Shown piece after piece: positions 1 to 16,267 of a DNA stretch of 16,267 nucleotides (positions within the stretch are counted from its first letter, which is position 1; the number at the start of each line of letters is the position of its first letter). The translations under genes and the position numbers were made by a program. The notes beneath the pieces were generated by a model, which saw nothing but the letters and a program-made list of their open reading frames with translations, did not search any database and was not told the DNA's origin. The stretch is from a virus. The stretch spans positions 1 to 16,267 of the IMG/VR virus record IMGVR_UViG_3300045988_100154, one strand, 5' to 3'.

Positions 1-59
1 TGATCGGTCGGTTGTCAGCCAGTGGCCGCCGGAGGCGGTTGCCCTCCGGGTGACGGACA
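1..59. repeat. Left inverted terminal repeat (59 nt), presumed protein-primed replication origin
   Basis: Nt 1-59 are the exact reverse complement of 16209-16267. Identity breaks at position 60 (c, where g would be needed). 41 of 59 nt are G or C. It contains a 7-bp hairpin, CCGGAGG 29-35 pairing with CCTCCGG 43-49, with a 7-nt loop. Confidence 0.9.
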
Positions 60-88
60 CGGCGCGGCGTGAATATGTGTGTAATGAT

Positions 89-134
89 ATTTTCTAGAAA
101 ATTTTTAGAAAAAGTATTGACATATTTCTAGAAA
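89..134. promoter_or_regulatory. Operator-like palindromes (TTTCTAGAAA family) overlapping the early promoter
   Basis: There is a perfect 14-bp palindrome ATTTTCTAGAAAAT at 89-102, a degenerate copy TTTTTAGAAAAA at about 102-113, and a perfect 10-bp palindrome TTTCTAGAAA at 125-134. The last one sits in the spacer between the -35 and -10 boxes. Confidence 0.45.
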
Positions 135-146
135 ATGTGGTATTGT
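117..146 (+). promoter_or_regulatory. SigmaA-type early promoter
   Basis: TTGACA at 117-122, an 18-nt spacer, then an extended -10 TGgTATTGT at 138-146. It lies about 55 nt upstream of the first RBS and ATG. Confidence 0.6.
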
Positions 147-200
147 AATATCAGAAACAAGGGAAAACCAATAATACAAAATAGAAATGGAGGAAACAAA

Positions 201-479
201 ATGAAAGAAATTAAGAGACAAAGTGACTATGAAGTGGTAGTAACAAAATATGGAAAAGAGATTTTCAGATATAAGGTTGATTCATTATTAACAGCAAATG
301 GTTTGGTAAAAACTTTCTGTTCACAAGCTATGAAAGAAAAGAGTGAAATTTTCTTTTCCATTTATGAAAAAGGAATAGAAATAGTAAATGGAGAACATTT
401 TTCGGAAGATTCTTTTTATTATTATTCGGATTTTCGGCCAGAAATGTTTGCTACTTATAAGATGTCGTGCAATAGATAA
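201..479 (+). CDS. Hypothetical early protein (92 aa)
   Basis: ATG 201 follows GGAGG (189-193) at good spacing, so the track start at 135 is probably too far upstream. The region is AT-rich. I recognise no motifs. Confidence 0.6.
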   Translation: MKEIKRQSDYEVVVTKYGKEIFRYKVDSLLTANGLVKTFCSQAMKEKSEIFFSIYEKGIEIVNGEHFSEDSFYYYSDFRPEMFATYKMSCNR

Positions 480-527
480 CTTTACATTTGCTTTCCTATC
501 GGCAATACGGGGAGAAAAGATGATAAT

Positions 528-905
528 ATGAGAATTAATCAAAAAATGACTTATGAAGAATTGATCAAAATGGAAAATAGCGTTGCTGAACTTCCATTTT
601 ATGTAACAAGAAAAGTAGGAAATGAGTTTAAAGTGTATGCTTATTCACATTTATCAATGACGAACGGATACGTCCGTAAAAAAGCAACTTACAATCCACA
701 ACCATATAAAGGACGTTTTGGTATCGGATTTACTGTAAAATCCAACAATTCCGCAAGTACTCGTTATTCTTACATAACTTATTATATTGAAATCAAACAT
801 TCCGTTATCTGTTCTGCGAACGATAATTGTACAGAGTGTCCATTGTATAATGACGATGATCTTTTCGAAGATTGTTATTATTATTATGAAGAATGCGGTT
901 GCTAA
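528..905 (+). CDS. Hypothetical early protein with Cys/Tyr/acidic-rich C-terminus (125 aa)
   Basis: This is an ORF-track reading frame. The C-terminal 30 aa contain 6 Cys (CSANDNCTECPLYNDDDLFEDCYYYYEECGC), which suggests a small metal-binding knuckle. The RBS GGGGAG at 508-513 is rather distant from the start. Confidence 0.55.
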   Translation: MRINQKMTYEELIKMENSVAELPFYVTRKVGNEFKVYAYSHLSMTNGYVRKKATYNPQPYKGRFGIGFTVKSNNSASTRYSYITYYIEIKHSVICSANDNCTECPLYNDDDLFEDCYYYYEECGC

Positions 906-925
906 TTGTAGAAAGGAGACTTGAT

Positions 926-1174
926 GTGATAGTAAACGCTAATAGAGAGTTTAGAAAGAAACTTTCTGACTGCAAAAATTTGTTTCAAGTCGCATCTTAT
1001 TGTTATAGTAGTAAAGATGTACGTATATACTTAGGTCGAGAACATATTATCTTTTCTGGAATTGGAAAAGATTTACTTGACTCTTATACGGTTAAAACAT
1101 ATGGAAAGTGTGCTGTTACTTATGTATACATTGATACGGACGGTGTGCGTATTGAATTAGAGAATAGAGGTTGA
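926..1174 (+). CDS. Hypothetical early protein (82 aa, GTG start)
   Basis: The in-frame GTG at 926 lies 7 nt after AAAGGAG (912-918). The track ATG at 893 has no RBS and overlaps the previous gene. Confidence 0.5.
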   Translation: MIVNANREFRKKLSDCKNLFQVASYCYSSKDVRIYLGREHIIFSGIGKDLLDSYTVKTYGKCAVTYVYIDTDGVRIELENRG

Positions 1175-1177
1175 GAA

Positions 1178-1423
1178 ATGAGAATAAAAGATATATTAAA
1201 TAAAATAAAATCCGTACACATGATTAGTGTACAAATCTACGCAAGATACCGTGTGTTTGGGGAATTGCAAGAAACAATTATTAGAAAATGGGAATGTAAC
1301 GCGACTACAATGCGTGGTTTTGATGAAGAAGACCGTTGGTTACTATGCGAGGAAGTAGAGGGTATTATCATCAGTGATACAACTTTAATGCTGTACATTA
1401 ATGGGGAGGTGTCAAATGTATGA
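1178..1423 (+). CDS. Hypothetical early protein (81 aa)
   Basis: The ORF has a GAGG RBS upstream. Its N-terminus MRIKDILNKI resembles that of the next small ORF. Confidence 0.6.
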   Translation: MRIKDILNKIKSVHMISVQIYARYRVFGELQETIIRKWECNATTMRGFDEEDRWLLCEEVEGIIISDTTLMLYINGEVSNV

Positions 1424-1548
1424 AAGTAAAAGATATATTGCCATATATTGACGATATCGTTGCTATCTATATAAACGATGAATTACAAGTTTCGTTTGTT
1501 GTAGTAATGGGAGATATGAAAGCAATTTGTATTGGTATTAGACTGTAA
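1420..1548 (+). CDS. Small hypothetical protein (42 aa), absent from the ORF track
   Basis: The start overlaps the previous stop as ATGA. GGAGG (1405-1409) lies 10 nt upstream. My hand translation is MKVKDILPYIDDIVAIYINDELQVSFVVVMGDMKAICIGIRL. The N-terminus looks paralogous to the 1178-1423 product. Confidence 0.4.
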   Translation: MKVKDILPYIDDIVAIYINDELQVSFVVVMGDMKAICIGIRL

Positions 1549-1599
1549 AGTAATTGATATTAAAATAAAAGATGGTTATTTATCATTGGAGGTGGAATA

Positions 1600-2178
1600 A
1601 TGCCGAAATCAAAAGACTATAGCATCTATCAAGAACTTGATCTTTCCCTTGAGCAGATCAAACGCGAATTACCTAAAGTTGCGGCGGCGGCGAATAGCCG
1701 CCTTGCCAAACTGGAAAAAATACACGCGCGCGACCAATGGGAGTATGGGCGCGTAAAAGAATTTTTTGCGTCACAAGGACGAGAAAAAAATCGTTTTTTG
1801 AAAGGCGTTAAGCGGCCGGATGCATCTATCCGGCAGGAATGGGATACCATGGTTGCGTTTCTGAACTCTCCAGAAACTACCTTGGAGGGATACCGGATTG
1901 CAGAACTGCAGAGACGTTTTGACAAGTCGAAGAATAAAATTGACGGAGAAGTAACAGAAGATAACTATAAAGACTTGTATCGTTTTCTGACTTCCAATAT
2001 CTACAAAAAAAATCTGCGAAAGCAGGTAGCGTCCGATCAAATTATTGACGATTTTATTTCGAAATTACATGATCGTGAACTTGAGTCCAAAGATATTCTA
2101 GAAGAGTATGAGAACTTTCTTGATGGATATATTACGGAGGAAGAACTTTTTCATAAGAATAGAACTAAATTAAAGTGA
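1600..2178 (+). CDS. Candidate terminal protein (192 aa)
   Basis: It sits immediately upstream of the protein-primed-type DNA polymerase (10-nt gap), as gene 3 precedes gene 2 in phi29. It has a strong GGAGGTGG RBS and is basic with a helical-looking composition. I recognise no direct sequence similarity, so the call rests on position and context only. Confidence 0.45.
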   Translation: MPKSKDYSIYQELDLSLEQIKRELPKVAAAANSRLAKLEKIHARDQWEYGRVKEFFASQGREKNRFLKGVKRPDASIRQEWDTMVAFLNSPETTLEGYRIAELQRRFDKSKNKIDGEVTEDNYKDLYRFLTSNIYKKNLRKQVASDQIIDDFISKLHDRELESKDILEEYENFLDGYITEEELFHKNRTKLK

Positions 2179-2188
2179 GGTAACATCT

Positions 2189-4348: not shown

Positions 4349-4356
4349 GGGACGAT

Positions 4357-4479
4357 ATGAGATATTTTGTATTTTTTATGTTTTTGATATTAGCAACCGT
4401 TTGGGCGTTACATGAGGAAGAACTCGACCTTGCCATACTGCTTTTATTTTTGGATATTTTCTATATTTTTCTCTTTTGA
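4357..4479 (+). CDS. Possible small two-helix membrane peptide (40 aa), absent from the ORF track
   Basis: My hand translation is MRYFVFFMFLILATVWALHEEELDLAILLLFLDIFYIFLF, two hydrophobic stretches split by an acidic turn. A weak GGGGA RBS lies 5 nt upstream. It fills the gap between the polymerase stop and the next promoter. Confidence 0.3.
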   Translation: MRYFVFFMFLILATVWALHEEELDLAILLLFLDIFYIFLF

Positions 4480-4482
4480 GTA

Positions 4483-4511
4483 TTGACTTTCTGGTAGAAC
4501 AGTGATATTAT
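4483..4511 (+). promoter_or_regulatory. Internal sigmaA-type promoter
   Basis: TTGACT at 4483-4488, a 17-nt spacer, then an extended -10 TGaTATTAT at 4503-4511. It lies about 48 nt upstream of the 4559 start. Confidence 0.5.
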
Positions 4512-4558
4512 AATACTTGTAAGAACAAATAACCACATAAAGAAAGGATAGGGAAAAA

Positions 4559-4795
4559 ATGGTTAGAACAAAAATTGAAAAATTTGTCTATTCTGTTATT
4601 GACAGAAATACAAAACAGGTGATCGGCTCTTTTGAGAATACAGAAGAACTGAAATCGCAGAAAGCAAAAACCGCCGCTGTTGCCGACGCTGGTTTTCCGG
4701 AGGATTCCATCTGTGTATTAACCGACACCGTATCCGCCCGCTACAAGATGCCGGACGAACAGTTCTTTGCCGAAGCAAAGAGACTGGACGACTAA
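4559..4795 (+). CDS. Hypothetical protein (78 aa)
   Basis: This is an ORF-track frame and the first gene after the internal promoter. I recognise no motifs. A DNA-binding or regulatory role, like phi29 p4 or p6, is only a positional guess. Confidence 0.55.
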   Translation: MVRTKIEKFVYSVIDRNTKQVIGSFENTEELKSQKAKTAAVADAGFPEDSICVLTDTVSARYKMPDEQFFAEAKRLDD

Positions 4796-4855
4796 TCAGC
4801 GCACAACCGCGGTCTGCATAGTAAAAACAACTTAAATCAAAAAGGAGAGAAAATC

Positions 4856-5275
4856 ATGAGTAAAGCAAAAATGAAACTTATGAACGTAACCGTGAAATAC
4901 GCAAAGGAAGAGGACGGAAAGAGCGTTCTTTCTGCATCAATCACAGCCGATCAGCAGAAAGCCATCTTCGAAAAAATCATCGAAGATTTCGGTGAGGATG
5001 CCGCCGCAGAAGCAAAGTGGATTCCGGCGAAAGAAACCGCCGAAGCTGGTCTTTACGTGAAAGCACAGACCAATTACCGCGTCGACTTCTATGAAGATGG
5101 AGTTGAGAGCGACACTGTTTCTAGCGTTGACGAACTCGGCAAAGGCGCGTTAGTAGACATTTTCATCTCCATCGGTGAAAGCAAATTCCGCCGCGATAAA
5201 GGTTTCACTGCATACCTTTCCGCAGTAAATGTTCACAAATTCGGCGATACAGAAAAATTCAATCCGTTTGCCTAA
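4856..5275 (+). CDS. Putative single-stranded DNA-binding protein (139 aa)
   Basis: It has a strong AAAGGAG RBS and sits in the replication-gene neighbourhood. The C-terminal segment GALVDIFISIGESKFRRDKGFTAYLSAVNV resembles the OB-fold strand pattern of T7 gp2.5/DUF2815-type phage SSBs. This is similarity judged by eye only. Confidence 0.45.
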   Translation: MSKAKMKLMNVTVKYAKEEDGKSVLSASITADQQKAIFEKIIEDFGEDAAAEAKWIPAKETAEAGLYVKAQTNYRVDFYEDGVESDTVSSVDELGKGALVDIFISIGESKFRRDKGFTAYLSAVNVHKFGDTEKFNPFA

Positions 5276-5393
5276 GTTGCAATGACCTGGGTACGTGCCC
5301 CGACTGGCGGACGGAAAACTTGAGTATTAAGTTACCTGTAGTTGATTGTTACTATATCTTGTGTATTTTTGAAAAAACTCCATACGTGTAAAG

Positions 5394-5423
5394 AAAGCTA
5401 CATTTTTCAATGTAGCTTTTTTT
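5394..5423 (+). terminator. Rho-independent terminator ending the early/replication transcripts
   Basis: An 11-bp perfect stem (AAAGCTACATT 5394-5404 pairing with AATGTAGCTTT 5409-5419) has a 4-nt loop TTTC. The 3' arm runs into a tract of 7 T (5417-5423). Confidence 0.8.
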
Positions 5424-5437
5424 ATATCAATCGTAGA

Positions 5438-5534
5438 TCTGCCGTCCTCTGCCGTCCATCTGCAAGCAAAACGTGCGATGATCGTGCGATAAACGTGAGA
5501 TTGTCTGCGGAGAGACTGGCGGGAAACTGGCGGG
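5438..5534. repeat. Three adjacent sets of short tandem direct repeats at 10-11 bp phasing (iteron-like)
   Basis: TCTGCCGTCC occurs twice (5438-5457) followed by a partial TCTGC (5459-5463). CGTGCGAT, CGTGCGAT and CGTGAGAT start at 5472, 5483 and 5494. ACTGGCGGG starts at 5515 and 5526. Confidence 0.7.
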
Positions 5535-5574
5535 TACGCTGTGAGGAGATGTTGAAAACGATAGAAAGGAGTAT

Positions 5575-6741
5575 GTGAAACAAAATGTTTCACGTGAAAC
5601 AATGATTTTTTGGAACGATATCAATTGGGAAAAACTTTTTGATGAATATAATGTGAAATTTGAAGCGGTAGACGATAACGGGAAAGCGATTCAATATTAC
5701 AATCCGATTCGGTTGTTTTCAGAGCCGGACGTGGACGGGGATTTCGCTGGCGTAGCAATTACGTGTTCCAACCGTAGCGCCGGAAAGACAAGTGCGTTCG
5801 CCGCGGCAAGCTGTATCTTGCGCAAAGAGTACGGATTGCAGACGGGATGGATTTTCCGGACGAAAGGGGAAATGACGGGAGCGGCGGCAATGTACGAAGA
5901 TATGCTAAGAATGTATCCTAAATTAGGAAGTGTGATTACCTATAAAAATCTGGACAAAAACGGAAATGTTGTGCGGTATTTTCTGGACGGCGTGCCATTC
6001 GGATGCGCGTTTAGTTTTGGAAGTAAGATGGACAGTGTAAAAAAATTGTCTCCGTATTTTCGGGATATCTACTTTTTGTTTTTTGACGAGTTCAGCATGG
6101 AAAGCGGACAATACGTAAAAGGGGAATCTGAAAAACTGCAATCGTTGCTATTGACGATTAGCCGCGGAAACGGAAGTCAGTCCCGATGGTTTAAACTGGT
6201 GATGGCATCCAATAATATTTCGTTGCTCAATCCCTATTTTGTATTTTTCGGCATCCACAAGCGTTATCAGAAAGAAACCAAAATGATGCATGGGAGCGGT
6301 TTTGTGTGTGAATTTACGCACAATGACAGTGCCAGCAAGGCAATGTGGGAGAACACCGCTTTGAAAGCATTCCGCGGCGGCCACTATATGCAAAGCATGA
6401 GTGTTGGAGATCAGATGTTGATTGATGATGCCGTGTTTGTACAAAAGCCGACCGGACGGTCGCGGTATCTGTTCACCATCGAGCATAGTGGAAAAAGTTA
6501 TGGAGTGTATGAGTATTACGAAGAGGGGTACATCTATATTACGCATAACTATAACCCATCGTGTAATTTTGTCGCGGTTTTTCGGGACGGCGACCACACA
6601 CAGAACACGGTTATGTTGGAACACTATGATTACCTGTTCGAAAATCTAGTTGACGCATACCGCAAAGCATTTTTGCGGTTTGACGATCTAGACAGCAAAA
6701 ATATGGCGATTGAGTTACTAGGGATTGATCTTTATAAATAG
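5575..6741 (+). CDS. DNA encapsidation (packaging) ATPase, phi29 gp16-like
   Basis: Walker A is SNRSAGKTS and Walker B is YFLFFDEF. The size (about 380 aa) is typical of the podovirus gp16 family. The start is uncertain: GTG 5575 lies only 3 nt after AAGGAG (5566-5571), and the alternative in-frame ATG at 5602 has no RBS. Confidence 0.85.
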   Translation: MKQNVSRETMIFWNDINWEKLFDEYNVKFEAVDDNGKAIQYYNPIRLFSEPDVDGDFAGVAITCSNRSAGKTSAFAAASCILRKEYGLQTGWIFRTKGEMTGAAAMYEDMLRMYPKLGSVITYKNLDKNGNVVRYFLDGVPFGCAFSFGSKMDSVKKLSPYFRDIYFLFFDEFSMESGQYVKGESEKLQSLLLTISRGNGSQSRWFKLVMASNNISLLNPYFVFFGIHKRYQKETKMMHGSGFVCEFTHNDSASKAMWENTALKAFRGGHYMQSMSVGDQMLIDDAVFVQKPTGRSRYLFTIEHSGKSYGVYEYYEEGYIYITHNYNPSCNFVAVFRDGDHTQNTVMLEHYDYLFENLVDAYRKAFLRFDDLDSKNMAIELLGIDLYK

Positions 6742-6765
6742 TTCGTGGGAGACGGACAAATGTAC

Positions 6766-6794
6766 TTGACATACGGATAAAAAAGATGTATCAT
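6766..6794 (+). promoter_or_regulatory. Strong sigmaA-type promoter upstream of the lysis/structural operon
   Basis: TTGACA at 6766-6771, a 17-nt spacer, and TATCAT at 6789-6794. Confidence 0.65.
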
Positions 6795-6802
6795 GAAAAT
6801 AC

Positions 6803-6880
6803 GGGGAAACCTTTTAAAAGGGGTTGCCACGGTTGAGTAAACCGCCCTGTCCTTGGCAGGTCAAAAGGTTTCCTTGTTTT
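6803..6880 (+). promoter_or_regulatory. Structured promoter-proximal RNA element (attenuator, or possibly a discrete small RNA)
   Basis: An 11-bp closing helix (GGAAACCTTTT 6805-6815 pairing with AAAAGGTTTCC 6863-6873) encloses two hairpins: 6830-6844 (CGGTT/AACCG) and 6846-6860 (CCTGTC/GGCAGG). A TTGTTTT tail follows at 6874-6880. Repeated AAACC and GGTT segments allow alternative pairings. Confidence 0.4.
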
Positions 6881-6905
6881 AATGGACAGGAAGAAAGGAG
6901 CAAAG

Positions 6906-7196
6906 ATGGCAAGTATCGTTTTTAATATGATTGTCGGAATGATGAAAAAAGAAAATGCTTATCTTGCTTATATGGTACGCTATAAAGGGGACGAAAAAGA
7001 CACGCTAATCATTGTCCCTCATGAAAATTACGAGTCTCACATCCGGTATTTGTGGGATTTCTTTTTCATGGATGGCAACGCGTATAACAGTAAATCGCCA
7101 GTCCGCTTCATTCATAATTTTATTATGTGTGATAAATTAAGTGAAATTGAGGACTGGTTAAAATGGCAGGATAAGGAGGTGGACGGATGGATGTAA
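6906..7196 (+). CDS. Hypothetical protein (96 aa)
   Basis: ATG 6906 lies 6 nt after AAAGGAG (6894-6900), so the track start at 6882 is probably too far upstream. I recognise no motifs. Confidence 0.6.
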   Translation: MASIVFNMIVGMMKKENAYLAYMVRYKGDEKDTLIIVPHENYESHIRYLWDFFFMDGNAYNSKSPVRFIHNFIMCDKLSEIEDWLKWQDKEVDGWM

Positions 7197-7414
7197 CAGT
7201 AGCACAGTTAATTACGCAGATGGTTGGAACACTTGGTTTTCCGATCGTTTGTTGTGGCGCACTTTTCTGGGATCGCATCAAAGCAGAAGAAAGAAGAGCA
7301 AAAGAAGCGGAATTACATCGGCAGGAAGTAGCAGAATTGCAGAAAGCAATAGAAGCAAATACACTTGCTATTAATACGTTATGCCAGCACTTAGGAGGTG
7401 AAAAGAATGAGTAA
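7187..7414 (+). CDS. Putative holin (75 aa)
   Basis: An AAGGAGG RBS precedes it. It has one N-terminal hydrophobic helix (LITQMVGTLGFPIVCCGALFW) and then a charged coiled tail. It sits immediately upstream of, and overlaps, the endolysin gene. Confidence 0.5.
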   Translation: MDVTVAQLITQMVGTLGFPIVCCGALFWDRIKAEERRAKEAELHRQEVAELQKAIEANTLAINTLCQHLGGEKNE

Positions 7415-8102
7415 AATCGAAAACGCAGTTGCATGGGCGGAACAGATTGCCGCCGATGATCGGCACGGTTACTCACAGGTACATCGGAACAGTCCCGATT
7501 ATGATTGTTCGAGTTTTGTCGGGACGGCACTTGCAAATGCTGGCTTTCCTGTCAGCATTTACAGCACCACAAGAAATCTCGGCGAACAGTTGGAAAAAGC
7601 TGGTTTTGTGAAAGCTAAGAAACCGTGGAAACGAGGGGACATCCATTTAGCCGCCGGGCATCATGTAACGATGTCGGTTGACGCGTCCCATATTGTCCAC
7701 GCCAGCCAGTCGGAAAACGGCGGGATTGATGGTCAGACGGGAGATCAGACCGGAAAAGAAATCTGTGTACGGTCTTATTACGATCTTCCGTATGAAAATA
7801 CCGTTCACTATCGGTATGCAGGAGCCGTCGACGAAAAGCCGCATAACGTCATTGAAAGTTGCGTCAAGACAGAATCCGCGCGTAGTTTTGACCGGAAAAT
7901 TGCAGGAGCGTATCATACCAATGATCGCTATAATCTGCGTGTTGGCGCAGGAATGAATAAAACTGTCATCTTGACGTTGCCAACCGGAACCAGTGTTAGA
8001 AACTACGGGTATTATACCGGAGAATGGTATCTGGTGAAAGCCGTAGTAAATGGCATCGTCTATACTGGTTACGTAGCAAAAGAGGGTTTAACCCATGGCT
8101 GA
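7407..8102 (+). CDS. Endolysin: Pal/Amidase_5-type (papain-like Cys) peptidoglycan hydrolase with a C-terminal SH3-like wall-binding domain
   Basis: ATG 7407 lies 8 nt after AGGAGG; the track GTG at 7398 sits inside the RBS. The motif GYSQVHRNSPDYDCSSFV plus GDIHLAAGHHV resembles the Dp-1 Pal N-terminal catalytic module. The C-terminus YNLRVGAG...GEWYLVKA...GYV looks SH3b-like. Confidence 0.8.
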   Translation: MSKIENAVAWAEQIAADDRHGYSQVHRNSPDYDCSSFVGTALANAGFPVSIYSTTRNLGEQLEKAGFVKAKKPWKRGDIHLAAGHHVTMSVDASHIVHASQSENGGIDGQTGDQTGKEICVRSYYDLPYENTVHYRYAGAVDEKPHNVIESCVKTESARSFDRKIAGAYHTNDRYNLRVGAGMNKTVILTLPTGTSVRNYGYYTGEWYLVKAVVNGIVYTGYVAKEGLTHG

Positions 8103-9150
8103 TCTGACGCTTGCTTACAATACCTGTATCGAGATTTGTAACAATCCAAACGTTGGATATTCCCAAACGTATCGTGAGGGTCAGACCGTAGGAGGTATTA
8201 CCTACTATGATTGTTCCTCTCTCATGAGTTACTGTTGTACGGTCGGCGGGTTTTTAGCATCTAACCCGTGGTTTACGACTCGTAGCATGGACGGATATTT
8301 GATCGGTGCTGGATTCCAAAAAGGTACAGCCAATCAGCCATGGAAAAAAGGTGATATCTTATGGAGGAGCGGTCACACCGAAATGGTTTACAATCCCGCT
8401 GACGGTGGCGGGTATACGATGGGAGCGCACACCGATAGTTACCCGCTGGAAAGACAGGTATCCATTAATACGTTTGTGTCTCCCTATAGCTCGTGGACGT
8501 ATCTTTATCGGTATCCGGTTGAGGTACAAAGCGGTATCAGCCAATATGTCATTTCCGCCATCTGCGGCAACTTTTGGCAGGAATCCACCGTAAATCCTGG
8601 ATTATGGGAGGGAACGATTGTCGGTTCACCCGGTTATGGTTTGGGTCAGTGGACAGATAATTCCTCTACCGACCGCCGGACGCGGTTGTTCCAATGGTTA
8701 GATTCCAACGGGTACAGCCGGGAAGATGGTAACGCGCAGTTAGAATATCTGATTTATGAAAATGTCTGGTATTCGGTCGGAGCCGCTAGTGCTTACGAAA
8801 ATCTACAAGCGTTTTTGCACAGTGACAGCACCGATCTGAACGCACTGACTTCCGCCTATATGAAAGGATGGGAGGGAATTAGTGACGATGGAACACTTGC
8901 GTTCCGGCAGGAAAAAGCACATTCGTGTTTCAATTTTATTTCGGAACACGCGAAAGATTCTGCAATTACCGGATGGATTGTTGGGAATCGGTATTTATCT
9001 GATTCCGAACGTTTGAACAACGCGGTGATGGTATATCGGTACTTGGCAAAAGGAGAGCAACCCGAGCCGCCTGAGCCGCCCCATCCCATGAAACCAAAAA
9101 GGCATAAAATGCCTATCTGGTTATATCCCAATTTAAAAAGGAGGTTTTAA
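8095..9150 (+). CDS. Two-domain cell-wall hydrolase, probably virion/tail-associated
   Basis: The N-terminal domain is paralogous to the preceding gene (GYSQTYREG...YYDCSSLM...GDILWRSGHTEMV). The central domain carries the phage tail lysozyme signature CGNFWQESTVNP...GYGLGQWT. The C-terminus is proline-rich (PEPPEPPHP). Confidence 0.7.
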   Translation: MADLTLAYNTCIEICNNPNVGYSQTYREGQTVGGITYYDCSSLMSYCCTVGGFLASNPWFTTRSMDGYLIGAGFQKGTANQPWKKGDILWRSGHTEMVYNPADGGGYTMGAHTDSYPLERQVSINTFVSPYSSWTYLYRYPVEVQSGISQYVISAICGNFWQESTVNPGLWEGTIVGSPGYGLGQWTDNSSTDRRTRLFQWLDSNGYSREDGNAQLEYLIYENVWYSVGAASAYENLQAFLHSDSTDLNALTSAYMKGWEGISDDGTLAFRQEKAHSCFNFISEHAKDSAITGWIVGNRYLSDSERLNNAVMVYRYLAKGEQPEPPEPPHPMKPKRHKMPIWLYPNLKRRF

Positions 9151-9151
9151 A

Positions 9152-9496
9152 ATGACACTAGAAGAGTATTGGACAGAAATTGTAGCAGATATTGGAAACA
9201 TCGAAACGCACGGTGACGCAATCGCCGCCATCAGTGAAAAAATCAAAACAGAAGATACCGACATCGGCGCACTGATGTCCGAACGTGACGCGCTGGTCGC
9301 AGAACGGGACGAACTGAAAGGAAAGTATGATTCCGCGGTGGCAGAAATCAAAAGCCGCTGGTCTGATCTTTCCCACGGCGGAAGTATCACAAAAGTAACC
9401 GAGTTTGGCAGAAACGCGCCGGAATCAGAAGAAACCGCAACAAGTATCAATGATCTTGATATGTCTCAGCTTATTTTAAGCGGAAAAGGAGAGTGA
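9152..9496 (+). CDS. Putative scaffolding protein (114 aa)
   Basis: An AGGAGG RBS precedes it. The protein is acidic with a coiled-coil-like composition. It lies directly upstream of the capsid gene, as phi29 gp7 does. Confidence 0.55.
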   Translation: MTLEEYWTEIVADIGNIETHGDAIAAISEKIKTEDTDIGALMSERDALVAERDELKGKYDSAVAEIKSRWSDLSHGGSITKVTEFGRNAPESEETATSINDLDMSQLILSGKGE

Positions 9497-9501
9497 AAAC
9501 A

Positions 9502-10812
9502 ATGGCAGAAAAATTAGATATGACAAATATTAATATGCTGAACGCCGTTCGGCAGACGATGAGTGTTGACTACCGTGACAGAGTTCCTGTGGCAACGCGA
9601 GAAAATATTGCCGATATTGCGAAAACATTAACCGACCCTTACAACCCGATGGCACGGAACGAACTGGTTCCTGCGCTGGTAAATCTGATTGCCAGCCAGT
9701 CGATCAGTACCGAAGCGTTCAGAAATCCTCTGCGTGTGCTGAACAGTAACGCTATGCCGTATGGAAACGGAGAACAGGAAGTCTACGTAAATTTTGCACA
9801 GGGTTACGCGCACGATGCCAATATCAGCATCGAAGATGCGACCGCCATTTATGACAGCTACATTATGGCGCTGTATCATGTAATCAATTTTAATAACGAT
9901 TATCCGGTAACGATCTGGTTTGAGGATATGCGCGGCGCGTTTCTCGATGATTACGGACTCAGAAGTCTGGTGCAGGCAAAAGTGGAAAGTGTTGTTTCCG
10001 CTTGTAATTGGGATGAGTTCACAACTGCAAAAGAACTGATTGCGTCTGCAAAGCGCGCAGGCCAGATTTACCCGGTTCATGTGGATGCGGTTACAGATCA
10101 AGCATCCGCGAACGCGCTGGCGAAACAAATCCAGTCCTATATTGACAAAATTCAGTTTCCGAACCCGCTGTACAATTTCGCCGGCGCGACATCGGCGGCA
10201 AAAGAAGATACCATTCTTCTGTTTGTCGACCCAGATACCAAAGCCGCGATGAACGTTGACAGTTATGCAAGCGCGTACAATCTCGACCGGATGATTCCGA
10301 AAGCACAGCAGGTTTTAATTGATAACTTTAACGATGCTGAGGGTATCGTGGCTGTACTGGTTGACAAACGGTTCTTCAAAATCCGAGAACAGTACCGCAT
10401 GATGGTACAGGATAATGTAAACCGGGGTCTGAGATGGAACAGTACGTACACTGTGAAAGAGATGTTCTCGTATTCCCTGTTCTATCCGATCATTGTTTTT
10501 ACAACGGAAGACGTTCTTGTTTCTTCCATCAACGCAAGTGACGTTGGACTGGTGAAAGCCGGAACAGATGTGGATTTTGGCGGCAGTTTTTCGGTTACTT
10601 CTACTGGAATAGCCGATAAAGCAATTGACGTAAAAGTAGAGGGTAACTCTTCCTCTGATACGTTTGTTATTCCTGGTACAACCATTCTTCGAATCGCAAA
10701 AGATGAGAAGAATCTTAAACCGAAAGCAAACAAAACAGCAAGCGTGCGGGTTGTGATTACAAGCCGTTTCGAGTCTTCCAAAACGGCAACCATTTACTTT
10801 ACGACAGATTAA
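9502..10812 (+). CDS. Major capsid protein (436 aa) with a C-terminal Ig-like domain
   Basis: ATG 9502 lies 10 nt after GGAG; the track GTG at 9493 abuts the RBS. Its position after the scaffold gene and its size match phi29 gp8. The beta-rich C-terminal ~100 aa (VKAGTDVDF...VKVEGNSS...VVITSRF) look BIG2-like. Confidence 0.7.
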   Translation: MAEKLDMTNINMLNAVRQTMSVDYRDRVPVATRENIADIAKTLTDPYNPMARNELVPALVNLIASQSISTEAFRNPLRVLNSNAMPYGNGEQEVYVNFAQGYAHDANISIEDATAIYDSYIMALYHVINFNNDYPVTIWFEDMRGAFLDDYGLRSLVQAKVESVVSACNWDEFTTAKELIASAKRAGQIYPVHVDAVTDQASANALAKQIQSYIDKIQFPNPLYNFAGATSAAKEDTILLFVDPDTKAAMNVDSYASAYNLDRMIPKAQQVLIDNFNDAEGIVAVLVDKRFFKIREQYRMMVQDNVNRGLRWNSTYTVKEMFSYSLFYPIIVFTTEDVLVSSINASDVGLVKAGTDVDFGGSFSVTSTGIADKAIDVKVEGNSSSDTFVIPGTTILRIAKDEKNLKPKANKTASVRVVITSRFESSKTATIYFTTD

Positions 10813-10828
10813 GTAAGAGGGAGGAAAC

Positions 10829-12394
10829 ATGGATAATTTCATTCCGATGCCGCCGCAGGAAAATGTGGCGGCTGTTTCCCCGCAGACAGAGGTAATTTTA
10901 GCAAGTGGGATTGAATGGGGAAACGATTATGAACACGTAAGATACTACGAAAACGGAAAAGCAGGTTGTCTGGCTCATGTAAGAAAAAAAGCAATTCATA
11001 TTTTTAAGCAATCCGCGCCCGTGAGATGGGGAGAGCTGACGTATAAGGGAAAAGGGAATGAGAGCGAATTTTTAAAGTGCAATTATATTGCGTTTCAGAA
11101 TAAACCTTATACGGAAGAGTGGTATTTCGGATTTGTGACGCGGGTAGAATGGTTGAGTGACGGAAGTTTTAAGATTTATTTTGAGCCAGATCGTTTCCAG
11201 AATAGTTTCTACGATGTGGTGTTACAGCCATGTTATGTAGAGAGGGAACATATCGCAAAAGCAGACGATAAAGTCGGCGCGAATTTAGTACCAGAAAATC
11301 TGGAAACAGGGGATTATATTGTAAATACGTCTGCTGGCATGGGTTTTGGTTTTATGAACTATTGTCTTGTTGCAAGTGCAGATGAGAACGGTGTTGCGCT
11401 TGAACCGGAACTAGATCAAAAAATCATGTCGGGATTGACTTATTTTAACACTATTGATTTTAATGCCATGAAACAGAAAATACAAGCCTATGCGACAAGC
11501 GGAAATGCAGACGCTATTGTAGCTATTTTTCAAGCGCCGCAATTATGCTTTGATGCTTCTGGAAAAGAATTTACAATGATTTTCCCCGAAACACTTGCAG
11601 GATATGCACCAAAAAATAAAAAATTATTTCAATATCCATTTTCTTATCTTCTGGTAGATGCACACGACGGCAGTCAATATATGTATAGACTTGAATACTT
11701 TAAAGACAATAAAATTTCTTTTTATGGGCAAGGGGTAAAGTTAAATATTCCGTCCATTTATATTAGTCCAAAAAATTACAAAAATGAACCTACTGATGAT
11801 ACACCGTATGGATTCGTATACAGTAATTTCCCGTCTTGCGCCTGGACGAATGACGCATATCAAGCGTGGCTTGCACAGTCTCAGCCTATATGGGATTACC
11901 AGACAAAACAGCAGTATATTGACACCGGAAAAAACGTGATCTCAACCATCGCAAATGTATTAAGTGGTAATTTTGGAAAAGCCATTGAAAGTAGCATCGG
12001 GCAAACCGTAAGCAACTTTATGTTCGGCGAAAATATTTCTGCACAGATGGAACAACACGATTTAATTCCGCCGACCGCAAAAGGAAGTGCTACTGGAAGT
12101 TATGTGCAAACGGCGCTTTTTAACAATACCATTGCTCTAAAAACGATGTGTGTAACACCGGAAATGGCGAAAGTGATTGACGATTATTTTACTATGTATG
12201 GGTATGCAACACACAAAATTAAAGTGCCGAATATCACAGGGCGGTCAAGCTGGAATTTTGTGAAAACTGTTAATTGTGGCTTGCATGGAGCGTGCGTCAC
12301 GGATGATATCAATTTTTTGCAGTCAATGTTTAACCGCGGGGTTACGTTCTGGCACACGGATGACGTTGGAAACTATGGTCTTTCCAATAATTAA
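10829..12394 (+). CDS. Tail knob / major tail protein, phi29 gp9-like (521 aa)
   Basis: The N-terminal pattern NDYEHVRYY...CNYIAFQNKPYTEEWYFGFVTRVEWLSDGSFKIYFEPDRFQ matches my recollection of the conserved gp9 N-terminus (SASYIMFQNADYGNKWFYAFVT...). Its position between the capsid and portal genes fits. Confidence 0.7.
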   Translation: MDNFIPMPPQENVAAVSPQTEVILASGIEWGNDYEHVRYYENGKAGCLAHVRKKAIHIFKQSAPVRWGELTYKGKGNESEFLKCNYIAFQNKPYTEEWYFGFVTRVEWLSDGSFKIYFEPDRFQNSFYDVVLQPCYVEREHIAKADDKVGANLVPENLETGDYIVNTSAGMGFGFMNYCLVASADENGVALEPELDQKIMSGLTYFNTIDFNAMKQKIQAYATSGNADAIVAIFQAPQLCFDASGKEFTMIFPETLAGYAPKNKKLFQYPFSYLLVDAHDGSQYMYRLEYFKDNKISFYGQGVKLNIPSIYISPKNYKNEPTDDTPYGFVYSNFPSCAWTNDAYQAWLAQSQPIWDYQTKQQYIDTGKNVISTIANVLSGNFGKAIESSIGQTVSNFMFGENISAQMEQHDLIPPTAKGSATGSYVQTALFNNTIALKTMCVTPEMAKVIDDYFTMYGYATHKIKVPNITGRSSWNFVKTVNCGLHGACVTDDINFLQSMFNRGVTFWHTDDVGNYGLSNN

Positions 12395-12406
12395 GGAGGT
12401 GATGTC

Positions 12407-13366
12407 ATGTATAATAACCCGTATCGGGTGAGTAACAAGGAAGTGTGGGGACACTGGGAAAGCAACCCGAATACGTCACCGGAAGAAAAAATGTATTTCC
12501 GGCACTTTTTTGACAAGTTTGTCAATCTGGCATTATCGCGGTATGAGTATGACGGTTTACCGGATGAGATTCCGCCGCGGATGCTCAACTCCTATCTATT
12601 ATGGCAGGGAATGTGCCTGTTCAAAAAAGAGCCAATCACCGGACTGTATGGTGTTTTCGGCGTGAATCTGGTAGGTGAGCCTGATATTTATGGTATCCCG
12701 ACCGATTGGATTGCGTACGCCATGAATGGACAGTATTATGAACAGACCGACAAGGAAGAAAGCGCGTTGATTTTTGCAAGACCTTTTGCTGTACCGGAAA
12801 TTCTCAGTATTATTCTTCATTCGCAGAGTCTAGCAGAGAAAAAAGCGTCGACAAGGGTAAACGTCATTCAGCAGAGAACGCCAGTTGTTATCAGCGGGGA
12901 TTCTACGCAGAAGTTATCCATTGACAACTTTATTCAAAAGTGGGTAAAAAATATTCCTTTCATCAAAGCAAAAAACGATCTGCGAAAACAGATTCAAATT
13001 GATACGATTGATTTAAAAGTACAGCCAATCTTTAACGAACTTGATACAGCCGCACAGAGAGAAGTAGCAGAATGTCTAGCTGATCTCGGTATCGAAGCAA
13101 GCGGCGTAGAAAAACCGGAACGGCTGGTTTCCGCGGAAACGAGTTACAACGATGGAGAGATCGAGTTGACAAGAAACGGAAATCTGGCTACCATTCAGAG
13201 GGGACTTGATGCGATCAATAAAATGTATGGATTGAATATCCATGTACGTTTTAATTCTAAGATGGTAACACCGATTAATAGACCCGATGTATTTGGCACG
13301 AAAAATGACGAAAACAACAAAATGAAAAACAACGGAAACAACACAACGGAAAGCGAGGTGGAATAA
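12407..13366 (+). CDS. Portal / upper collar connector, phi29 gp10-like (319 aa)
   Basis: Several blocks align by eye to phi29 gp10: LPDEIPPRMLNSYLLWQG with LPPTINPSFLEKSIHQFG, QQRTPVVISGDSTQKLS with AQKTPVLIRANDNNQLS, ERLVSAETSYNDGEIE with ERMVTDEVSSNDEQIE, and INKMYGLNIHVRFN with INELYGLNVKVKFR. Confidence 0.85.
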   Translation: MYNNPYRVSNKEVWGHWESNPNTSPEEKMYFRHFFDKFVNLALSRYEYDGLPDEIPPRMLNSYLLWQGMCLFKKEPITGLYGVFGVNLVGEPDIYGIPTDWIAYAMNGQYYEQTDKEESALIFARPFAVPEILSIILHSQSLAEKKASTRVNVIQQRTPVVISGDSTQKLSIDNFIQKWVKNIPFIKAKNDLRKQIQIDTIDLKVQPIFNELDTAAQREVAECLADLGIEASGVEKPERLVSAETSYNDGEIELTRNGNLATIQRGLDAINKMYGLNIHVRFNSKMVTPINRPDVFGTKNDENNKMKNNGNNTTESEVE

Positions 13367-14124
13367 TGTTTCTTGGCTATAACTACGAAACAAAAACGTT
13401 GACGAATACCATTGAACAGTTGGTTATTTCCGATCATGTAATTTCCCCACTTGAAAATCAAACCATTGATAATATGATCGAAGCCGCCGTTCCTTTAATC
13501 TTCAATTTTGACTTTCCGTTTTATGTCGATGCATCCGCTCCCGAATATGCAACCGCAAAACTTACGTTCGAAAAAACATTCTGTTTACAGTATTTTCGGG
13601 AACAGATCGGGTTAGAAACTATCGGAGAATTTCAGTATCATCTAAAAAAGATTCTTACGGTCAATATGCCGTACTATGAACAGTTGTACCGGAGTATTAC
13701 TTTTGAGTATAACCCGCTGATTACTCATAAGAGTACGCGGAAAGTACAGAGTACAAAAGACGATACGCGAACAGGTGTGATCGCGGGAGACAGCACAGCG
13801 AAAAACACAACGACAGCCGATACAAATAACAATACCCAAAATATCCATTCCGACAACCCGCAGATTAATTTTGCCGGAACGAATTATGCGTCTACAATGG
13901 ATAGGGGACAAAATACCATCCATAACAGTGCGGTAAGCAATGGAGAGAATACAACAAAAACCAACAGCAATGACACGTATCATGCAGATAATAATGATAC
14001 GATTGAAGATGAGGGTTTTGACGGTAGTTACTCATTAGAAGTACAGAGATTCCGCGATACCATCCTTAATCTTAACAAGCGTATCTGTGACGATTGCAGA
14101 GAACTGTTCTATCAATTTTATTAA
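13366..14124 (+). CDS. Putative lower collar protein (gp11 position, 252 aa)
   Basis: Its start overlaps the portal stop as TAATG. Size and position correspond to the phi29 lower collar gene. The middle is rich in Asn and Thr. I recognise no direct motif. Confidence 0.5.
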   Translation: MFLGYNYETKTLTNTIEQLVISDHVISPLENQTIDNMIEAAVPLIFNFDFPFYVDASAPEYATAKLTFEKTFCLQYFREQIGLETIGEFQYHLKKILTVNMPYYEQLYRSITFEYNPLITHKSTRKVQSTKDDTRTGVIAGDSTAKNTTTADTNNNTQNIHSDNPQINFAGTNYASTMDRGQNTIHNSAVSNGENTTKTNSNDTYHADNNDTIEDEGFDGSYSLEVQRFRDTILNLNKRICDDCRELFYQFY

Positions 14125-14138
14125 GGAGGGATAGCAAA

Positions 14139-16121
14139 ATGGCAGATAAACCAACGATTCCAGATTTTCCTACGTTGCCAGAGTTAGGGCGGATGATTAC
14201 GCAAGCTTGTAAAGTTGTCGCAAGTGTGCGGGGGATTCCATATGATTTCAACGGGACTTTGAGTCTGGAAAATAAATTTGTTGTGCTGTTTAAAACGGTA
14301 AAAGAGATGTTTGACGCGCAGGACGAACTTGTGAAAAGTTACAAGGCGTTATATGATTTTATCAATCAGTATTTTACTAATCTCGATTTACAGAACGAAG
14401 TAAATAAGAAAATCGAAGAACTGAAAAACAGTGGAAAACTTATTACTCTAATGAAACCGGCTATAACAAACGAAGTGTCAACATGGCTGACAGCTAACAT
14501 CGCTAACCCATCAAACCCACCACTTGACAAGACGTTAACTGTAGAAAATGCCGCCGCAGAGTCTAAAACTACGGGTAACAAAATTGAAAAATTAACGAAT
14601 GATATGTCTTGTTTGATGCATAAAGATTTTAATTTATTAAATAATAAGTATATAGATTTTTCAGACGGCAAAATATACAACTACCTCATTGTTGATCTAC
14701 TAAGTGCTACTGATTATATTGAAATAAGTACATTATCATCGTACATTTGTTTATACAATTTAAAATATAATGAGGATAACGTAGCAGGAATTGCCTTTTA
14801 TGATTCTGGCAAAAAATACATTACTGGATATAAACTTTTTAATTTATCAAATAAAATTAAAATCCCGCATAATTCACGCTATTTACGTGCAACAATTCCT
14901 TATAAGTGCATCAACAATTTCGGAATTTCATATTTGGATAATAATAATAAAATAAACACTTTTATTTCCGGCACAAACACACAAATTGATAACTTAGATC
15001 TCTATAAATTATCAGCAGTTCGAACTATTGATTGTGATTTTATCAAAATTGGTAAAAACTTATTTAACAACAGCACAGTTACAGTCGGTTATTATGTCGA
15101 CCCGGGAACAGGAAAACTACTAGAAAATCCTGATTTTTGGACAAGTGACTTTATACCAGTGGAACCAAACACAACATATACACTTCGGTATAAGAACCAA
15201 GCCTCACAATATGATGAAAATAAAAAGTCTTTAGGTGATTTTACACTCGATTACAGTGAGACTACATCAGCAGCGTCAATAACAGCCACGACAAAGCCAA
15301 AAGCAAAATACGTGCGAATATGTGGGTCATTAAATCAGTTAACTACCGATCAATTTGAAAAAGGTGATTCATTCACTTCTTACGAAGCATTTTCACAAAA
15401 AATTGAAAGTAGTTTAATACCGACATTAAAATCAAAAACACTTGCAAATATTATTTATAAAATATTCGCTGGAAACAATACACGAATTAAATTAGTCGGT
15501 GACAGTATTATGCATGGACAAGGCGGCACTGGTTTTACTCAAAACGGAGAATATATTGCTACTGTTTTTGGCAATAAATACTACAGAAACCCAAACGGAT
15601 ATTGCTGGGCAAACTTATTTAAAGCATATCTTGAAAGTAAATTCAGTTGTAGTGTTACAAACAATGCCATTTTAGGAACTTCTTTCAAAGAATTAAATGA
15701 AAATTTTAACACTTTAATAAGTAGTGATGATGATATTGTGATTTGTATGTATGGCACAAATAACCGTAATTCATTACCAGCAACTACCGGTTGGATTCAA
15801 AGCGTAATCAACAAATGTAATGCTTTAAATTTAGATTTAATACTTATGACTCCAATTCCTGCAAGCGTGAAAAATGAGGAACAATATACAAATCATATCG
15901 AAGATATATGCAATACAATAAAGACAGTTTGCATCAATAATAATGTTCCATTTGTTGATACAAACCAGATTATGCTTGACTATTGCGAATACAGGAATGT
16001 AGATATTAATACATTATTAGCAGATGGTTTACATCCGAATGATGAGGGATATCTTATTCTCTTTAATGCAGTTTGCAAAGTATTAGGCATTACTAGAAAA
16101 GTCACCGGAGCAACATGGTAA
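14139..16121 (+). CDS. Tail appendage / receptor-binding protein with a C-terminal SGNH (GDSL) esterase domain (660 aa)
   Basis: ATG 14139 follows AAGGAGG; the track start at 14094 lies inside the previous gene. SGNH blocks are VGDSIMHG (GDS codons at 15498-15506), ILGTS, YGTNN, and DGLHPNDEGY (from 16023). Two repeated beta-sandwich-like modules lie upstream of the esterase. The gene occupies the phi29 gp12 position. Confidence 0.75.
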   Translation: MADKPTIPDFPTLPELGRMITQACKVVASVRGIPYDFNGTLSLENKFVVLFKTVKEMFDAQDELVKSYKALYDFINQYFTNLDLQNEVNKKIEELKNSGKLITLMKPAITNEVSTWLTANIANPSNPPLDKTLTVENAAAESKTTGNKIEKLTNDMSCLMHKDFNLLNNKYIDFSDGKIYNYLIVDLLSATDYIEISTLSSYICLYNLKYNEDNVAGIAFYDSGKKYITGYKLFNLSNKIKIPHNSRYLRATIPYKCINNFGISYLDNNNKINTFISGTNTQIDNLDLYKLSAVRTIDCDFIKIGKNLFNNSTVTVGYYVDPGTGKLLENPDFWTSDFIPVEPNTTYTLRYKNQASQYDENKKSLGDFTLDYSETTSAASITATTKPKAKYVRICGSLNQLTTDQFEKGDSFTSYEAFSQKIESSLIPTLKSKTLANIIYKIFAGNNTRIKLVGDSIMHGQGGTGFTQNGEYIATVFGNKYYRNPNGYCWANLFKAYLESKFSCSVTNNAILGTSFKELNENFNTLISSDDDIVICMYGTNNRNSLPATTGWIQSVINKCNALNLDLILMTPIPASVKNEEQYTNHIEDICNTIKTVCINNNVPFVDTNQIMLDYCEYRNVDINTLLADGLHPNDEGYLILFNAVCKVLGITRKVTGATW

Positions 16122-16208
16122 TATTACTAAAGTTACACATATAATCAACTAGCCAACCGCAGAGCAAACTCGGAGCGGTGACACCGGAGGGCAGGCGCGG
16201 ACATGGAA

Positions 16209-16267
16209 TGTCCGTCACCCGGAGGGCAACCGCCTCCGGCGGCCACTGGCTGACAACCGACCGATCA
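16209..16267. repeat. Right inverted terminal repeat (59 nt)
   Basis: It is the exact reverse complement of nt 1-59. It carries the mirrored hairpin CCGGAGG 16219-16225 pairing with CCTCCGG 16233-16239. Confidence 0.9.

Follow-up and report, generated by a model that had tools for sequence, protein, structure and literature searches.

We have analysed a 16,267-nucleotide stretch of viral DNA, positions 1 to 16,267 of the IMG/VR record IMGVR_UViG_3300045988_100154 (the whole stretch is referred to in what follows as the window), that carries the gene set of a phi29-type phage between two copies of a perfect 59-nt inverted repeat. An earlier reading of the letters alone, the original prediction below, had taken the window for a complete linear, protein-primed phage genome. 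The window is a phi29-type small tailed phage genome of a common uncultured lineage; with regard to completeness, however, comparison with its relatives argues strongly that it is terminally truncated and very probably lacks the physical termini. A neat inverted terminal repeat (ITR) at both ends of a contig is widely taken as a mark of completeness for linear viral genomes. In this lineage such a repeat often corresponds to an assembler word length inside a repeat ten times longer, a pattern that is seen in the window, in several IMG/VR relatives and possibly in AD70P2, which is listed as 'complete' in GenBank.

The window (Table 1) has a genomic GC content of 40.6% and no tRNA genes were found in it; 93% of its length is taken up by 21 open reading frames (ORFs) on the + strand. 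The ten longest ORFs of the minus strand all sit antisense within + strand genes and match no PHROG family, in agreement with the original prediction that every gene lies on one strand. Along this strand the order is terminal protein (TP)-like gene, polymerase, small genes, ATPase, lysis genes, scaffold, capsid, knob, connector, collar and fibre; the predicted placement of the ATPase and lysis genes between the replication and structural modules is confirmed by Pfam and PHROG gene calls. The predicted set of phi29 hallmarks is likewise present, namely the polymerase, a gp16 ATPase, a Phi29-type capsid, a gp9 knob, a gp10 connector, a lower collar and two lysins. What has to be given up is the description of the layout as unusual, since the cultured phages HM2 and AD70P2 have the same one-strand order and so do metagenomic relatives whose polymerases are 72, 67, 55 and 46% identical to that of the window. 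Only against phi29 itself does the arrangement stand out, and for the clade it is normal. A polymerase gene followed directly by the ATPase gene is also found in Salmonella phage astrithr and Hungatella phage CH17P1, and a 2024 review of 2,115 phi29-related sequences reports frequent rearrangement, with many clusters departing from the gene order of phi29 (PMC11476376).

Direct comparison of the two ends establishes that positions 1-59 are the exact reverse complement of 16209-16267 (59 nt, 100%), as had been predicted, and that the ends part at nt 60. The GC content of the repeat is 69.5% as against 40.6% for the genome, and a perfect match of 59 nt cannot arise by chance. In order to place these ends we have made use of the related contigs in IMG/VR, where at least 160 encode a polymerase 88-95% identical to that of the window, and a second fetch anchored on a central gene provided 60 whole contigs of at least 14 kb. 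In many of the relatives the homolog of window position 1 sits 370-1,200 nt inside the contig, and relatives read straight through positions 1 and 16267 for another 470-800 nt; this extra outer sequence is further terminal sequence and not a circular junction or a fold-back. Positions 1-59 of the window align to 516-575 of the relative L132, to 587-643 of L137 and to 508-565 of L170, an independent ENA contig, and all three continue outward from there to 5'-AAACATATATA. In the multiple alignment position 1 falls in the middle of a conserved block, between ...GTAATCGTGAG and TGATCGG..., and the right end behaves in the same manner, with relatives running 470-800 nt beyond the equivalent of 16267.

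The lengths of the repeats in the 60 whole contigs point in the same direction. Perfect ITRs of 273-635 nt are found in 11 of them (457-635 nt in nine); in another 11 the perfect ITR measures 25-119 nt, and in eight of these exactly 55 (three), 77 (two), 99 (two) or 119 nt (one). Common word sizes are 55, 77 and 99 for the assembler SPAdes and 59, 79, 99 and 119 for MEGAHIT. On their inner side the short ITRs end at nearly the same place, mostly 15-53 nt before the early promoter that serves as anchor, and they differ only in how far outward they reach; the window, where this distance is 29 nt and the repeat extends outward for 59 nt, fits the series. Because the ITRs of relatives extend further and other ITRs equal assembler word sizes, the 59 nt are best read as an assembly stop, and the neat repeat as an assembler remnant of repeats of ~0.5-0.65 kb. 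In assembly the two copies of the repeat would have been merged into one, with extension halting one fixed word length into it, and an apparently neat 59-nt ITR would be the result.

The position of the real terminus can be read from the relatives, whose long perfect ITRs begin with 5'-AAACATATATA. The terminal motif is present at 37 contig ends of relatives, and 32 of these have just 3-13 nt outside the motif, 13 nt forming a sharp limit. Fourteen ends begin with AAA(C/G/T)ATAT, as does the independent ENA contig. A physical DNA end would produce just such a hard stop, shared by independent assemblies, and a 5'-AAA start is also known for phi29 and many of its Bacillus relatives (PMC11476376, PMC9965433). 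ITRs of roughly 0.5-0.65 kb, each starting with 5'-AAA, would thus be expected for the real genome. The original prediction had named reads across the ends, indicating a circular or concatemeric junction or flanking host DNA, as an outcome that would count against a linear genome; the related contigs are all collinear with fixed ends, and neither a circular nor a host junction was seen among them. A circular or concatemer junction was considered and rejected, as no contig is circularly permuted and what lies beyond the AAA terminus, in the few ends that extend so far, is Nextera adapter or a short stretch of unrelated bases. One such case is L093 (IMGVR_UViG_3300045988_080494), where the Nextera transposase adapter TCGTCGGCAGCGTCAGATGTGTATAAGAGACAG is joined at positions 1-45 to phage sequence near the terminus.

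Several observations weigh against truncation. The case is built on relatives at 86-91% nucleotide identity and not on the same strain, and neither the first 40 nt of the window in IMG/VR nor its first 25 nt in the metagenome collection could be found. The perfect ITR of L132 ends outside the homolog of the 59 nt, so that the inner boundary of the ITR varies between strains. Finally, the reading of 59 nt as a word size presupposes MEGAHIT, of which 59 is a default, as the assembler behind the window. One might then regard the window as a whole genome after all, with a true 59-bp ITR and physical, protein-capped termini, for the repeat is perfect and lies exactly at both contig ends, no same-strain assembly with longer ends was found in IMG/VR or the metagenome collection, and the ITRs of phi29-like phages vary widely in length (6-16 bp in Bacillus phages, PMC9965433; 25-30 bp in C. 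perfringens phages, PMC3362512). Yet relatives of ~90% identity read through both end points unbroken, equally neat ITRs of 55, 77, 99 and 119 nt occur in related contigs, the window ends start with TGATCGG and not with the shared 5'-AAA terminus, and every conserved terminal element of the lineage is missing from the window, all of which makes a genuine 59-bp ITR very improbable. The claim of a complete genome is therefore not upheld: relatives pass both ends by 470-800 nt, with ITRs of 457-635 nt and a shared 5'-AAA terminus.

It could also be argued that it is the long ITRs of the relatives that are artefactual, assemblers having copied one end of a molecule with a long unique end and a short true repeat onto the other, since duplication of an end would also give perfect identity over 450-635 nt. 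We regard this as scarcely credible given that the outer sequence is met separately at left and at right ends, in contigs with one complete end, that it recurs in independent assemblies (IMG/VR, ENA SPAdes and Logan), that the window's own two ends have 59 nt in common and that cultured relatives have annotated ITRs of 170-577 bp. A different kind of alternative concerns the biology of the element, which might be a linear plasmid-prophage, that is, a protein-capped episome in its host rather than a strictly lytic phage, comparable to C. beijerinckii plasmid III and EF62phi-like elements. HM2 and plasmid III of C. beijerinckii DSM 6423 fall in one major capsid protein (MCP) cluster and phi29-related phage-plasmids have been described (PMC11476376); five early genes and an array of ~11-nt repeats in the window, moreover, have no assigned function. 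Pfam and PHROG searches of the window proteins, on the other hand, returned no partition, toxin-antitoxin, repressor or integrase family, no close relative was found among 185,579 species-representative bacterial and archaeal genomes, and lytic members of the group have genomes just as small. An episomal life style is in our view unlikely.

Returning to terminal truncation, the window would consist of the unique part of a linear genome of ~17.3-17.5 kb together with 59 nt of each terminal repeat, the estimate of total length following from the ~510-590 nt that are missing per end; the longest related contigs measure 17.2-17.6 kb. The window appears to be coding-complete. In L137 only mechanical ORFs of 25-76 aa are present in positions 1-780 and the first conserved gene starts at 783, and no gene is called in related contigs in the ITR parts that the window misses, the short ORFs there having had no family search. 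What the window does not contain is the replication origins proper and the outer ITR elements.

These outer elements can be described from the relatives. The outer 415 nt of their ITR are at least 90% conserved at most positions. A 19-bp palindrome, TGTCCG-N7-CGGACA, is present in eight copies in L137, all in the ITRs and four per end, where 0 are expected by chance, and in 0 copies in the window. The outer ITR further contains an inward promoter-like site, TTGACA-17-TAAAGT, and an outward extended -10 box, TGTTATAAT (by eye), with a hairpin and T-run ~60 nt downstream, which would give an outward transcript of ~65 nt, from near position 142 to 78 in L137. In L137 (1-420 and 16800-17220) this combination of palindromes, back-to-back promoter-like sites and hairpin resembles the annotated ITR promoters of Cp-1 and asccphi28. 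Between the conserved outer ITR and the unique region lie GC-rich modules, each ending in a TTATATGTGTAAC-like box, in a number that varies by strain and that accounts for ITR lengths of ~450-640 nt within one genus. L006, for example, has three copies of a 119-nt GC-rich subterminal unit at 400-800, and module variation is seen as well in L088 (columns 640-800 of alignment A2). The window retains one GC-rich module at its right end (16122-16208), plus the innermost module as its 'ITR'.

Long ITRs have precedents in asccphi28 (577 bp, annotated), Cp-1 (236 bp) and HM2 (~170 bp), and those of the present lineage, at 450-635 nt, are at or slightly above the longest measured or cited in this comparison. 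Being both long and highly conserved they would be a good place to study protein-primed origins outside the phi29 model. There is an outside chance that the 0.5-0.65 kb ITR forms a functional cassette without a described counterpart among phi29-like phages, in which four palindromes and back-to-back promoter-like sites are combined with variable GC-rich modules and a short outward transcript that ends in a hairpin, and that it loads a new, sequence-unrelated family of terminal proteins (the product of 1600-2178) or encodes a packaging or regulatory RNA that replaces the packaging RNA (pRNA) of phi29. The ~11-nt repeat array before the ATPase gene might belong to the same control system.

Table 1. 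Features of the window, in order of position
Feature	Position	Strand	Basis or remark
Left copy of 59-nt inverted repeat	1..59	.	best read as innermost piece of a longer ITR, not a physical terminus
TTTCTAGAAA palindromes	91-100, 102-111, 125-134	.	bracket the early promoter-like site, one in its spacer
Early promoter-like site, TTGACA-18-TATTGT with TG extension	117-146 (region 91..146)	+	conserved in relatives (alignment columns 840-884)
Five small early genes	201-479, 528-905, 893-1174, 1178-1423, 1420-1548	+	ORFs; no assigned function
Candidate terminal protein, 192 aa, predicted all-helical	1600..2178	+	position upstream of polymerase
Family-B DNA polymerase, protein-primed type, 719 aa	2189..4348	+	phrog_1907, E = 2e-52
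Middle genes	4357-4479 (40 aa), 4559-4795 (78 aa), 4856-5275 (139 aa)	+	ORFs
Middle promoter-like site	4483-4511	+	intergenic
Intrinsic terminator closing the replication module	5391..5425	+	hairpin and T-run
Short repeat array, period ~11 nt	5437..5545	.	between terminator and ATPase gene
gp16-type DNA packaging ATPase, 388 aa, GTG start	5575..6741	+	PF05894 Podovirus_Gp16, E = 2e-26; phrog_2150
Late promoter-like site, TTGACA-17-TATCAT	6766..6794	+	best-scoring in the window, intergenic
104-aa protein, lysis region	6882-7196	+	ORF
Holin-like protein	7187-7414	+	family searches
NlpC/P60-ELLD and SH3 lysin	7398-8102	+	family searches
ELLD and Phage_lysozyme2 protein (second lysin)	8095-9150	+	family searches
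Probable scaffolding protein, 114 aa	9152..9496	+	inferred; directly precedes capsid gene
Major capsid protein	9493..10812	+	PF25622 Phi29_MCP, E = 7e-66, full-length
Tail knob, gp9-like	10829..12394	+	PF20934 phi29_gp9_C, E = 1e-24; phrog_2248
Portal / upper collar connector, gp10-like	12407..13366	+	PF05352 Phage_connector, E = 4e-31; phrog_2038
Lower collar, gp11-like	13366..14124	+	phrog_3225, E = 5e-27; phrog_5472 'lower collar', E = 1e-17
Tail fibre/appendage with C-terminal SGNH/GDSL hydrolase domain	14136..16121	+	PF13472
Right subterminal module	16122..16208	.	GC-rich, with TTATATGTGTAAC-like box; matches left-end regions of relatives in reverse complement
Right copy of 59-nt inverted repeat	16209..16267	.	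best read as internal to the true ITR; relatives extend 470-800 nt past its equivalent

The polymerase of the window, taken alone, stays below the Pfam threshold, and as a single sequence it finds no match in the PDB. A profile of 21 polymerase homologs searched against 177,635 PDB sequences, in contrast, has phi29 DNA polymerase as its only match (E = 1.5e-9), in an alignment that spans residues 142-464 and 479-549 of the phi29 enzyme; its terminal protein regions TPR1 (residues 261-358) and TPR2 (398-420) both lie within the aligned span. Twelve of the 21 homologs match PF03175. Clustering with family-B enzymes that are not protein-primed had been named as a finding that would count against the original prediction, and the profile match and the PF03175 matches place the polymerase instead with the protein-primed type. 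The full set of Exo and Pol motifs that had been claimed is also present, as invariant columns in the 21 homologs: ExoI D58-x-E60, ExoII N131-x2-Y-E135 and ExoIII Y217-x3-D221, followed by Pol A D316-x2-S-x-Y-P, Pol B K-x3-N-S-x-F-G, Pol C Y545-x-DTDS and the K-x-Y motif K610-K-Y612. In a by-eye alignment the ExoII sequence HNLSYEF has Glu135 at the place of the phi29 metal ligand Asp66, a Glu that is invariant in the 21 homologs and found also in HM2.

The gene at 1600-2178 most likely encodes the terminal protein. It is the only candidate, and the assignment rests on gene position: a homolog lies directly before the polymerase gene in every relative examined, including HM2 and AD70P2 (22% identity), with a length of 190-310 aa across relatives; among the 120 matches listed all are at least 88% identical. 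In HM2 (L001, 1150-2088) and in L162 (791-1699) the gene at this position encodes ~310 aa and is a tandem duplication of the single domain of the window. Y49, T94, S132 and S145 are invariant residues of the protein. Searches with the single sequence and with a 6-member profile against the PDB, and of all members against PHROGs, gave no link to known terminal proteins. A Foldseek search with the AlphaFold model, which is of low confidence (predicted local distance difference test, pLDDT, 60), found nothing. Protein priming would start replication at both ends of the genome, with the polymerase using the 192-aa product of this gene.

The small genes to either side offer little by way of function. 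The early genes at 201-1548 match nothing in Pfam or PHROG searches; the first four (g01-g04) are kept in close relatives, and g05, an uncertain gene call, matches nothing in any compared genome. Family searches (Pfam, PHROG) of the middle genes at 4357-5275 were also without a match. The 40-aa product of 4357-4479, directly after the polymerase, is very hydrophobic, and a 41-aa gene is found at the equivalent place in the relatives L157 and L158.

A search for promoter-like sites, based on sequence, gave three strong intergenic sites, all rightward. Expression would run in one direction, from a putative early promoter at the left end, a middle one near 4483 and a late one near 6766. The early site is accompanied by TTTCTAGAAA palindromes, of which there are four matches in the window against ~1 expected by chance and which look like operators for a repressor of early transcription. 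The terminator at 5391-5425 would separate the replication genes from that of the packaging ATPase; it is kept in the two diverged relatives L157 and L158, with both-sided compensatory changes at four pairs. A promoter-like TTGATT...TGTGTATTTT box (by eye) lies ~20-50 nt before this terminator, and box and terminator (5343-5425) could together form an attenuator or antitermination point for the ATPase and late genes. In the repeat array that follows, Tandem Repeats Finder reports ATCTGCCGTCC x2.5 and AAACGTGCGAT x3 at 5437-5501, with a further ACTGGCGGGAA pair (by eye) up to ~5545, and L158 has 18 copies of AGTCAAACGGC at the equivalent place (4761-4963). With one helical turn per unit, the array suggests phased binding of a protein.

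Rfam searches of the window, L137 and HM2 at E <= 1 gave no match to pRNA; this RNA is known only from Bacillus phages and hence does not define the broad phi29-related group. The 299-nt gap at 5276-5574 (fold z = -3.2) was considered as a site for such an RNA and rejected, as comparison with L157 and L158 shows the terminator and tandem repeats with no conserved fold; more distant relatives have only ~60 nt at the equivalent gap upstream of the ATPase gene. For an RNA candidate in the outer ITR, 34 variants and 43 predicted pairs yielded no compensatory change, the paired columns being almost invariant and the result therefore uninformative.

Of the packaging and structural genes, the ATPase covers positions 6-326 of the 331 in the PF05894 profile; it would package unit-length DNA into the Phi29-type capsid via the gp10 connector. 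The gene in L162 that is syntenic with 9152-9496 has a weak match to PF11418 Scaffolding_pro. The capsid protein is only ~26-28% identical to that of any cultured phage. The tail fibre and that of Streptococcus suis prophage Javan585 are 31.5% identical, and the N-terminal 27% of the protein is the only part that it has in common with L137. At the DNA level 14594-16208 is covered by fewer than three relatives, and the C-terminal three quarters of the fibre gene (14594-16121), with a GC content of 30.8% as compared to ~41% for the rest, are absent from close relatives. This part of the fibre is probably a receptor-binding and SGNH esterase module that was recently exchanged, an exchange of the ordinary kind.

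With regard to classification, capsid p8, p9, p10 and p11, ATPase p16 and polymerase p2, which are hallmarks of the broad phi29-related group (as listed in PMC11476376), are present in the window; for the terminal protein, also a hallmark, there is a positional candidate. Placement in Salasmaviridae is not indicated, the capsid protein being ~26% identical to those of Bacillus phages and the polymerase 23% identical to that of Bacillus phage Aurora, with a different gene order. In comparison with Guelinviridae the polymerase is 39% identical to that of AD70P2, where no structural protein matches, and the capsid protein ~26-28% identical to those of many Clostridium phages; that family splits into three MCP clusters (PMC11476376). 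INPHARED contains no phage similar at the DNA level, and the nearest public contigs, fetched whole, have 86-91% average nucleotide identity over 80-88% of the window. At this level they share its genus, and the usual 95% rule would make them different species. Novelty, which the original prediction had made dependent on there being no near-identical genome on deposit, thus stands in that none is deposited and is diminished in that a large set of same-genus contigs is public. Thousands of members of the polymerase family are present in public assemblies, the exact polymerase of the window being absent from the assembly index, and one protein of the lineage is in GenBank within a third-party metagenome-assembled Caudoviricetes genome. 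This is a very common lineage of small phages with no cultured member, the nearest cultured phages reaching 44.5% in the polymerase and ~26% in the capsid protein, and an isolate would probably have to be assigned to a new genus at the least. Some samples among the IMG/VR contigs have numbering in the style of the Human Microbiome Project, which suggests a probable origin in the human gut. Matches of the lysins and fibre point loosely to Gram-positive gut anaerobes and streptococci, and from sequence we infer a Gram-positive gut anaerobe as the putative host.

The best cultured match to the polymerase is that of Clostridium phage HM2 (LT600745, 17,470 bp; unclassified Caudoviricetes; MCP cluster 21 in PMC11476376), at 44.5% identity over 97%. 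HM2 resembles the window in its ATPase (43%) and TP-like protein (33%) and in the one-strand order of TP-like gene, polymerase, ATPase, capsid, knob and portal, and its ITR of ~170 bp runs, as in the lineage, to hundreds of nt. It differs in its structural proteins (24-26% identical), in having no small early or lysis genes in common with the window, in its GC content (29%, PMC11476376, versus 40.6%) and in its TP-like protein, a tandem duplication of ~312 aa as against 192 aa. The polymerase and ATPase are thus closest to HM2 (43-44%), while the structural proteins are slightly closer to those of CH17P1 (28-37%), a mosaic pattern that agrees with the mismatched gene trees reported across phi29-related phages (PMC11476376). 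In AD70P2 (Amedibacillus phage, OP172638, 12,320 bp; Guelinviridae in GenBank) nearly all genes are on one strand, one small gene excepted, and the ATPase gene lies between those of polymerase and capsid, as in the window; in contrast its genome is 4-5 kb smaller and, beyond the polymerase (39%) and TP-like protein, a holin-like protein is the sole further match. Its perfect ITR is exactly 55 nt long, a SPAdes word size, and that of CH17P1 is 58 nt at 98% identity; the deposited ends of both may be truncated like those of the window.

The ITR of Lactococcus phage asccphi28 (NC_010363) is annotated at 577 bp and includes putative promoters and a terminator. In this phage the genes for terminal protein and polymerase are followed, after a few small genes, by holin, terminase and endolysin on the same strand. 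Unlike the window, it has its structural genes on the opposite strand, and tblastn finds no similarity to the core proteins of the window. The 236-bp ITR of Streptococcus phage Cp-1 (NC_001825) has one promoter directed outward and one directed inward. Cp-1 shares with the window the location of nearly all genes on one strand with terminal protein and polymerase first, but its ATPase and lysis genes are the last ones, as they are in phi29, and its capsid and portal proteins are 24-25% identical. Phi29 itself (Bacillus phage, Salasmaviridae) differs in its 6-bp ITR, its divergent early operons, its ATPase as the last late gene and its pRNA; it has in common with the window the capsid, knob, connector, lower collar, ATPase and protein-primed polymerase, and it starts with 5'-AAA, as does the lineage (PMC11476376).

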